From a virus (taxonomy: Duplodnaviria; Heunggongvirae; Uroviricota; Caudoviricetes), in IMG/VR virus record IMGVR_UViG_2663762857_000017: DNA of 6,132 nt; one strand, 5' to 3'. This document shows, in pieces, positions 1,335-1,625 of the stretch. The position numbers and the translations under genes were made by a program. The notes beneath the pieces were generated by a model. That model saw only the letters and a list, made by a program, of their open reading frames with translations. It was not told the origin of the DNA and did no database searches. Within the stretch, counting starts at the first letter, position 1, and each line of letters opens with the position of its first letter.

Positions 1335-1342
1335 CCCGACCC

Positions 1343-1352
1343 GGGGGGGGGG
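1343..1352. repeat. Homopolymeric G10 tract
   Basis: Ten consecutive G (ccGGGGGGGGGGatc), 9 bp after the HNH stop codon. Seen directly in the sequence. Confidence 0.6.
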
Positions 1353-1424
1353 ATCATCCGGCGTAAAAAACGATCGCTTTGGACACCGCGCCCCCTCTCA
1401 CGCAGAGAAAAAATTCCCGTTTCA

Positions 1425-1448
1425 GGCCAGTTAACATGTTAACTGGCC
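1425..1448. repeat. Perfect 24-bp palindrome GGCCAGTTAACATGTTAACTGGCC, candidate terminase/regulator binding site
   Basis: Exact reverse-complement symmetry, verified base by base. It consists of two inverted ATGTTAACTGG half-sites. Confidence 0.6.
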
Positions 1449-1503
1449 GTCCGGGCATTTTTGCGGTTTTTATCTTTATTATTCATTTAGTTGCGCGAAA
1501 AAA

Positions 1504-1551
1504 ATGTTAACTGGCTTTTTCAGAAAATGTTAACCAGGCAGCAGTTAACAT
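1504..1551. repeat. Three more copies of the ATGTTAAC(T/C)(G/A)G half-site: 1504-1515 direct, 1527-1538 direct, 1542-1551 inverted
   Basis: ATGTTAACTGGC (1504-1515), ATGTTAACCAGG (1527-1538) and CAGTTAACAT (1542-1551). The last two form an imperfect palindrome with a 9-nt spacer. That makes five half-sites within about 130 bp. Confidence 0.5.
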
Positions 1552-1625
1552 TTGCGGCATGAGACGCCGGGAAAAATGGGCTGAACCATACCCGGCTGAG
1601 TGCGTTCTGGACCCGGGAGGAGGCT

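Follow-up and report, generated by a model that had tools for sequence, protein, structure and literature searches.

A predicted HK97-type cos site with an array of putative small-terminase half-sites in a Shiga-toxin-type Escherichia coli prophage

The cos site of phage lambda is composed of cosQ, cosN, and cosB (R3, I1, R2, R1) and is bound by gpNu1 and IHF, and between lambda and phage 21 the array of sites and the N-terminal DNA-binding domain of the small terminase (TerS) are exchanged together as a specificity module. Small terminases of the SPP1/SF6 type recognize short, repeated boxes located in intrinsically bent DNA that flanks the cut, and the phages that encode them use headful (pac) packaging without defined ends or an HNH partner. 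Here, we analyze a 6,132-bp stretch of viral DNA ("the window"; IMG/VR record IMGVR_UViG_2663762857_000017) in which a 291-bp element (1335-1625) fills the whole gap between an HNH endonuclease gene and terS. Judged from its sequence, this element is a cos (DNA-packaging) site of a Shiga-toxin-type Escherichia coli prophage with HK97-type packaging, i.e., with an HNH endonuclease and an HK97-like large terminase (TerL). We consider it probable that the cos site is complete, that an HK97-type machine acts on it, and that TerS docks with its helix-turn-helix domains on five half-sites. A previous reading of the bare DNA letters (the original prediction) had already proposed a cos region at this place and compared it to lambda cosN followed by cosB.

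The ends of HK97 have been defined experimentally as 10-nt 3' overhangs (PMC9410871, PMC11331095), and its TerS contacts one 15-bp site at +15 to +29 from the cut, an A-tract, through N- and C-terminal arms (PMC11331095). The window shares with HK97 the HNH gene immediately upstream of cos and the adjacent terS and terL genes downstream of it, a TerL homologous to HK97 gp2, a tract of 9-10 G followed by ATCA whose end is 42-45 bp away from the cut, a 10-nt 3' overhang rich in C/G (CGCCGCCAAA in HK97, predicted to be CGCGCCCCCT for the window), and an A/T tract ca. 12-29 bp after the cut. Unlike HK97, whose TerS is unrelated by sequence, the window does not pair a gp1-type TerS with a single 15-bp site but has an SF6-type helix-turn-helix TerS facing five half-sites over 125 bp, and its terS starts 229 bp after the cut compared to 49 bp in HK97.

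Set beside lambda, the order of parts is analogous: an upstream accessory element, a nicking site, a proximal candidate TerS site, a bendable spacer, and further candidate TerS sites before the small terminase gene. The G10 tract takes the position of cosQ, and multiple repeats downstream of the predicted nick (+31 to +155), to which TerS would bind, are arranged around a spacer with 65% A+T. Array and TerS helix-turn-helix domain of the window's family also appear to be exchanged together, as for lambda and phage 21. However, the system itself is of HK97 type (10-nt 3' overhang, HNH-assisted). The lambda cosN sequence is absent, in agreement with the original prediction, and the overhang is 3' and 10 nt long, going by the mapped ends of a relative, versus 5' and 12 nt in lambda. 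Furthermore, the system includes an HNH partner, its TerS is of the Terminase_2 family and not of that of gpNu1, the nearest solved relative of TerL is that of HK97, and the spacer is devoid of an IHF consensus at ≤1 mismatch. With SPP1 and SF6 (G1P), the window shares the fold of the N-terminal TerS domain, and some of its relatives carry a half-site-like GTAAACAT ca. 34 bp upstream of the cut. The difference is that defined cohesive ends are present in the window's family, of which a close relative is a cos phage with 3' ends according to PhageTerm.

This relative, Lys8385Vzw, is a member of the window's phage family, and its cohesive ends are at the same place. Its description gives only the 10-nt end and the class "3' cos", while the G tract, the half-site array, and a model of TerS binding are not described in it (PMC7946995). 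In the literature that we searched, we found no description of the G-tract rule, the half-site array, or its covariation with TerS, and no paper linking GTTAAC repeats to terminase or cos. What is already published is the 10-nt end of the phage family, and what is undescribed is the layout of this known kind of element.

The window's phage family carries stx1, stx2a, and stx2c of enterohemorrhagic E. coli (EHEC) and has matches in 2901 out of the 5426 complete genomes of E. coli, where several copies per genome are frequent. Knowing the position of cos and the target of TerS tells which co-resident prophages, defective prophages, or satellites each terminase can package, supplies transduction tools with a minimal signal for packaging, and allows the evolution of small-terminase specificity to be tested on natural material. 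The system, of which natural specificity variants already exist, also bears on how ring-shaped small terminases read DNA.

Cohesive ends and the upstream G tract

For the induced Stx1 phage Lys8385Vzw, PhageTerm analysis assigned cos packaging with 3' cohesive ends and the 10-nt end sequence CGCCCCCCCT at the genome end (PMC7946995). This phage is 95% identical to the window over the cos region, and its record is broken exactly at the equivalent of window 1396/1397. Its mapped 3' ends thus fall inside the gap between the HNH gene and terS/terL, which bears out the cos region of the original prediction. Since the window equivalent of the mapped end is CGCGCCCCCT at 1387-1396, the predicted nicks (top strand 1396/1397, bottom strand 1386/1387) are situated 35-44 bp downstream of the G tract and not in it. 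The original prediction had placed the nicks near the G-rich end, which is correct insofar as they are on the G-rich side of the array, between G tract and palindrome, but not at the tract itself.

The same spacing is found in relatives. The right end of HK97 reads G9-ATCA followed by 32 nt and then CGCCGCCAAA, while the window reads G10-ATCA followed by 34 nt and then CGCGCCCCCT. We gathered 79 distinct related cos cores from viral contigs and genomes. In 76 of them, the predicted cut is preceded at a distance of 43-46 nt by the end of a run of 5-10 G (42 nt in HK97), and the commonest predicted overhang is identical to that of the window. We therefore regard the G10 tract as a fixed-distance, family-wide accessory element of cos. 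The cos core itself is nearly identical in Enterobacterales prophages whose TerS proteins are only 33-49% identical. The starts of three metagenomic viral contigs (L129, L133, and L162) are at or close to the predicted cut, with distances of 0, 4, and 10 nt on its upstream side, whereas records that start at terL or terS (phi330, Burkholderia phages) have arbitrary starts and were excluded as evidence for ends. Features of the element and of its surroundings are compiled in Table 1.

Table 1. Coordinates of features in the window.
Feature	Position	Strand	Sequence, basis, or remark
TonB_C-domain small protein	254-595		ORF/Pfam (ORF, open reading frame)
DUF3950 gene	727-987	-	ORF/Pfam
HNH endonuclease gene	969-1334	+	Pfam PF01844, E 4.8e-7; annotated as HNH endonuclease in relatives; directly upstream of cos
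G10 tract, then ATCA	1343-1352		Fixed-distance upstream cos element (putative)
cos core	1381-1419		GGACACCGCGCCCCCT/CTCACGCAGAGAAAAAATTCCCG; conserved in relatives
Predicted 10-nt 3' cohesive end	1387-1396	+	CGCGCCCCCT; homology to mapped relative
A6 tract and TTCCCG	1408-1419		+12 to +23 from cut; family-wide conservation
24-bp palindrome	1425-1448		GGCCAGTTAACATGTTAACTGGCC; half-sites 1 and 2
Half-site 1	1427-1437	-	ATGTTAACYRG match
Half-site 2	1436-1446	+	ATGTTAACYRG match
AT-rich spacer with phased T tracts	1449-1503		Island TTATTCAT..GTTG at 1478-1493
Half-site 3	1504-1514	+	ATGTTAACTGG; ATGTTAACYRG match; position kept in type B and C lineages
Half-site 4	1527-1537	+	ATGTTAACCAG; ATGTTAACYRG match
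Half-site 5	1541-1551	-	ATGTTAACTGC (minus-strand reading); ATGTTAACYRG match
terS, small terminase	1626-2189	+	Pfam PF03592; codons 1-56 (1626-1793) encode the SF6-type helix-turn-helix domain
terL, large terminase, HK97-like	2186-3847	+	Pfam PF03354, PF20441
Prohead protease-major capsid fusion	3911-5848		ORF/Pfam

As a side observation, the start of the G tract (GACCCGGGGGGGGG, 1338-1351) resembles the Shine-Dalgarno region of terS (GACCCGGGAGGAGG, 1610-1623) with 86% identity, which may be chance or the trace of a rearrangement that created the new terS start.

The half-site array and the small terminase

Direct reading of the sequence finds the G10 tract, the perfect palindrome, the AT-rich tract, and the three further half-sites where the original prediction had seen them, and the distance from the last half-site to the start of terS, given there as about 75 bp, is indeed 75 bp. 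All five half-sites are of the ATGTTAAC type, in the orientations listed in Table 1, and their GTTAAC cores begin at 1430, 1438, 1506, 1529, and 1544, with one further, unrelated copy at 55. The claim that such a cluster is far above chance is correct: the window holds six copies of GTTAAC where 0.90 would be expected, a number that none of 200 shuffles reached. The longer motif ATGTTAACYRG (≤1 mismatch) has five matches, all of them within 1427-1551, compared to 0.29 expected and again none of 200 shuffles reaching five. Perfect 24-bp palindromes would be expected at a frequency of ~6100 x 4^-12 = 4e-4 in such a window. The outer arms of the palindrome are not conserved in close relatives, most of which have GGGCAGTTAACATGTTAACTGGCT, and the conserved unit is an 18-bp core, CAGTTAACATGTTAACTG.

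The spacer between the proximal pair and the distal sites (1449-1503) is 65% A+T compared to 44% for the window, with T/A runs at 1458, 1467, 1475, 1486, and 1498 (i.e., every 8-12 bp), and is probably bent. A search for an IHF site, suggested in the original prediction, came out negative, as no match to the consensus WATCAANNNNTTR with ≤1 mismatch is present in 1449-1503. Matches with two mismatches are found only at 1477 and 1481, overlapping each other and the conserved island at 1478-1493, and an involvement of IHF at the spacer is thus unsupported by the sequence. This island (TTATTCAT..GTTG) and a second one, GGCAGC (1537-1542, between sites 4 and 5), are kept in all seven diverged lineages compared below and match no consensus that we tried.

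The comparison across related prophages that the original prediction had called for shows that the half-sites are conserved beyond their surroundings. In an alignment of seven diverged E. coli lineages, 30 of 38 half-site columns are invariant (79%) as are 24 of 33 in the cos core (1387-1419), compared to 32 of 103 between the sites (31%) and 10 of 65 between array and terS (15%). Even lineages with unalignable spacers have the five half-sites at the same distances from terS.

Where the half-sites differ, they differ together and in step with TerS. A TerS helix reading K-T-A-R-V-K-G is paired with ATGTTAAC at all five sites (type A), while K-S-A-R-C-K-G together with E26 is paired with ATGTTTA[T/C] at all five (type C). 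In type C the proximal pair is a perfect palindrome again, with both arms symmetrically changed to TATAAACATGTTTATA, and this concordance holds for six distinct type C lineages with zero discordant cases. In a third type, TerS has Q39R, and sites 1-3 carry GTG/CAC in place of CAG/CTG in their flank. T32S, V35C, and Q39R all map at or within residues 33-41, the predicted recognition helix in our structural model of TerS. Two variants (L178 and L179) carry type C array and helix-turn-helix, but the C-terminus of their HNH and the N-terminus of their TerL are 97-98% identical to those of the window. The type of site therefore follows TerS and not HNH or TerL, and array and helix-turn-helix domain appear to be exchanged as a cassette. 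Across complete E. coli genomes, every match to the type C helix-turn-helix coding region (≥95% identity) also carries a type C array. A gapped-pattern scan of IMG/VR for combinations of site and helix returned at least 120 concordant type A loci and zero type C loci and is thus uninformative for allele C; a 14-mer scan of IMG/VR for the type C palindrome was non-specific and of no use, and a single metagenome scan yielded 27 chance matches and zero from the window's phage family.

The only sequence match of TerL in the PDB is HK97 TerL (6Z6D; E 1.6e-9, residues 84-534), and the HNH protein matches HK97 gp74 marginally by BLASTP (E 0.096), yet PF01844 is found in both. By contrast, TerS carries Terminase_2 (PF03592) over residues 2-57, and its family profile matches SF6-type and Pam5 small terminases. 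We had considered TerS as a homologue of HK97 gp1 but discarded this idea, since comparison with the family profile gave no similarity (hhalign probability 0.1%). In an AlphaFold2 (AF2) model of TerS built on 20 family members, the N-terminal domain is predicted confidently: residues 1-50 have a block-mean confidence (pLDDT) of 92-96, and the helices span 4-14, 19-25, 33-41, and 44-56. Foldseek aligns this domain to the DNA-binding domain of the SF6 small terminase (4ZC3; TM score 0.84, root-mean-square deviation 1.6 Å; TM score 0.81-0.84 for 4ZC3 and 2CMP). An HK97-like TerL and HNH next to an SF6-type TerS therefore represent an HK97-type nicking module joined to a helix-turn-helix small terminase. 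The proposal that the half-sites are binding sites of the TerS helix-turn-helix thus receives indirect support from their conserved positions, the concerted change of sites and helix, and the SF6-type domain, and they are most likely docking sites in a lambda-cosB-like array.

In the mechanism that we propose, concatemeric DNA would be nicked by TerL and HNH at 1386/1387 and 1396/1397, leaving the 10-nt 3' ends CGCGCCCCCT. The G10 tract, located 45 bp before the cut, would be an accessory element on the side of the genome packaged last, while the five ATGTTAAC half-sites on the side packaged first would be sites for the N-terminal SF6-type helix-turn-helix domains of a TerS oligomer. These sites are laid out as an inverted pair at +31 to +50, a presumably bent AT-rich spacer, and three sites at +108 to +155, so that TerS oligomers could bind the proximal pair and, across the bent spacer, the three distal sites. 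The resulting complex would mark the DNA as viral and recruit, orient, and position TerL and HNH on the nicking site, a role that by analogy would be that of cosB and gpNu1 in lambda.

More distant relatives (TerS 28-49% identical, including phages of GC-rich hosts) have a pair of GTTAAC-like motifs at +30 to +50 from the cut, occasionally with three or four copies instead. In most relatives, terS starts only 39 bp after the cut, so that the motif pair is also the start region of the gene (GGAGGGT-GTAAAC-ATG-TTA-ACA). The first codons of terS in these phages, ATG TTA ACA (relatives L006-L027), are the right half of a GTWAAC-ATG-TTAAC motif pair. Among enteric relatives with the start at +38, the second codon is the rare leucine codon TTA in 18 of 18, though TTA accounts for 1.7% of the other leucine codons there, and among more distant relatives it is TTA in 24 of 26 compared to 7.8% of leucine codons elsewhere in those genes. 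The three lineages with a moved start (the window, L022, and L024) use CTG as codon 2 and still have GTTAAC-like copies upstream. Retention of TTA and the switch to CTG where the upstream repeats were kept together argue that the motif itself is selected at the DNA level, i.e., going by codon usage it is under DNA-level constraint where it is coding.

The overlap of terS start and putative TerS site suggests that autoregulation is possible in these relatives. The central ATG of the window's palindrome (1436) is at the position of the relatives' terS start, 38 nt after the T of TCAC. Because the Shine-Dalgarno sequence before 1436 is gone and the real start of terS is a GTG at 1626, binding site and start codon would have been split in the lineage of Stx phages, where the site has also been multiplied into an array. 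Taken together, these observations tentatively suggest an evolutionary scenario that we regard as possible though not the likeliest course of events. The TerS site would ancestrally have been located on the ribosome-binding site and start of terS (GTWAAC-ATG-TTAAC, +33 to +46), enabling TerS to throttle its own translation, until the two were uncoupled in the Stx lineage, where the start shifted downstream by 190 bp and the site was multiplied, with array and helix-turn-helix circulating as a specificity cassette of types A, B, and C. If true, this would let us see how a multipartite cosB evolved out of an HK97-style cos with a single site, and the cassette would set packaging-compatibility groups among related prophages that are co-resident in EHEC genomes.

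Two further observations concern the number and placement of the motifs. Many relatives (L006-L016, L106-L132, and others) have a second GTAAACAT ca. 34 to 27 nt before the cut, which directly repeats the one located 34 bp downstream of the cut. With these copies 68 bp apart, half-site-like motifs flank the nick as pacL and pacR do in SPP1, and the window's counterpart of the upstream copy (1362-1370) has degenerated to GTAAAAAAC. Some E. coli variants (L167, L174/L175) carry a sixth half-site, GTGTTAACCAGG, between sites 3 and 5 and ca. 100 nt before terS, so the copy number of the array varies.

Competing explanations

Several points weigh against a cos site with five TerS half-sites. The ends have been assigned by homology to a relative and not mapped on this element, whose prophage copy is moreover interrupted by an IS66-like insertion sequence (IS). 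Most relatives package their DNA without the downstream array, so sites 3-5 are dispensable to the mechanism of the family. The A-tract at +12 to +23 is the equivalent of the HK97 TerS site and by this analogy could be the true or main TerS site; its A6-TTCCCG may otherwise be an additional or alternative contact of TerS. Finally, only 75-200 bp separate the array from the helix-turn-helix coding region, so their co-inheritance could partly be linkage, and the switch from type A to type C may have been a single evolutionary event.

Among the alternatives, the one that survives best, though improbable, is that the repeats form hairpins in the late transcript or DNA cruciforms (sites 1:2 and 4:5) that modulate the translation of terS or the stability of the transcript, or that they are operators for another phage or host protein. 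A strong hairpin is indeed predicted for the RNA of 1405-1480 (-24.6 kcal/mol, z = -4.5), pairs 1/2 and 4/5 stay dyad-symmetric through the changes between types in a compensatory-looking manner, and the motif of the relatives overlaps the ribosome-binding region of terS. However, types B and C show no conservation of the extended hairpin's outer arms, and site 3, although no partner is dedicated to it, is likewise conserved and changes along with the others. In relatives, the two halves are either 2 nt apart, which is too short for a hairpin loop, or arranged as direct repeats (AAAAGTTACAC twice, GTTAAAGG twice after a shorter GTTAAA, ATAGTTAACA twice though imperfectly, and GTTAACCC twice in several of them) and therefore incapable of forming hairpins. 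We also found no intrinsic terminator, no plus-strand promoter (the sole promoter-like match is on the minus strand and made of the repeats themselves), and no Rfam family at E ≤ 1. Furthermore, the type of site tracks the TerS recognition helix.

Somewhat less likely still, the motifs could be neutral scars. The palindrome would then be a fossil of the ancestral terS start (ATG TTA AC = Met-Leu-Thr), sites 3-5 would be duplicates from the relocation of the start to 1626, and TerS would read only the proximal A-tract like its counterpart in HK97. This would fit with the ATG at 1436 being at the start position of the relatives, with short ORFs from 1436, 1504, and 1527 that begin MLTG, MLTG, and MLTR when TerS begins MLTT, with the family-wide conservation of the A-tract at the position of the HK97 TerS site, and with the absence of the array from most relatives. 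Yet scars should decay like their surroundings, whereas the half-sites are far more invariant than the sequence between them and have kept their positions despite unalignable spacers. The concerted change of all five sites to ATGTTTAY, the rare TTA codon kept in relatives, and the GTTAAC-like repeats that lineages with a moved start retain upstream, with CTG then at codon 2, similarly speak against neutrality.

That packaging of this element starts elsewhere or by a headful mechanism, with the motif cluster being coincidental regulatory DNA, could draw on the ends having been mapped in a relative and on the disruption by the IS66-like element at ~6021, but it is contradicted by the mapped 3' cos ends at this place in a 95%-identical relative, runs counter to the architecture and gene order (HNH, terS, terL) common to HK97 and to contig ends that coincide with the predicted cut, and is very unlikely.

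Prophage context and neighboring genes

The window is the start of the late/morphogenetic region of a lambdoid E. coli prophage, with the cos gap at the end of the lysis module. Stx-converting relatives (JLK-2012, BP-4795, 2851, YYZ-2008, and 1717) are 94-99% identical over positions 1-6021. Based on its domain and position, the HNH gene codes for the accessory nuclease used in packaging by HK97-type cos systems. According to a preprint, proteobacterial cf-PICIs (phage-inducible chromosomal islands that form capsids) have hnh-terS-terL after their head genes, and no cos sequence is given in it. An origin of the window's relatives from cf-PICIs was considered and rejected, as related IMG/VR contigs are phage-sized with 40-50 kb.

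The last ~110 bases of the window (6010-6132) match the end of an IS66-like element of the ISCro1 family, and homology to the phage family stops at 6021. The insertion truncates a small ORF before the portal gene (5893-6024), which encodes 43 amino acids here compared to 73 in JLK-2012, and the window's copy of the prophage is thus IS-interrupted and probably defective.

Directly after terL, a Peptidase_S78 prohead protease and the major capsid protein are encoded as one ORF of 645 amino acids (Table 1). In JLK-2012, the portal gene follows this protease-capsid fusion, an arrangement that is unusual among HK97-like head modules. The HNH coding sequence of the same phage (L001, 9969-10499) is annotated with 531 bp compared to 366 bp in the window and runs through the G tract and the cos core, probably reflecting a difference in annotation or in a stop codon near the G run of variable length.

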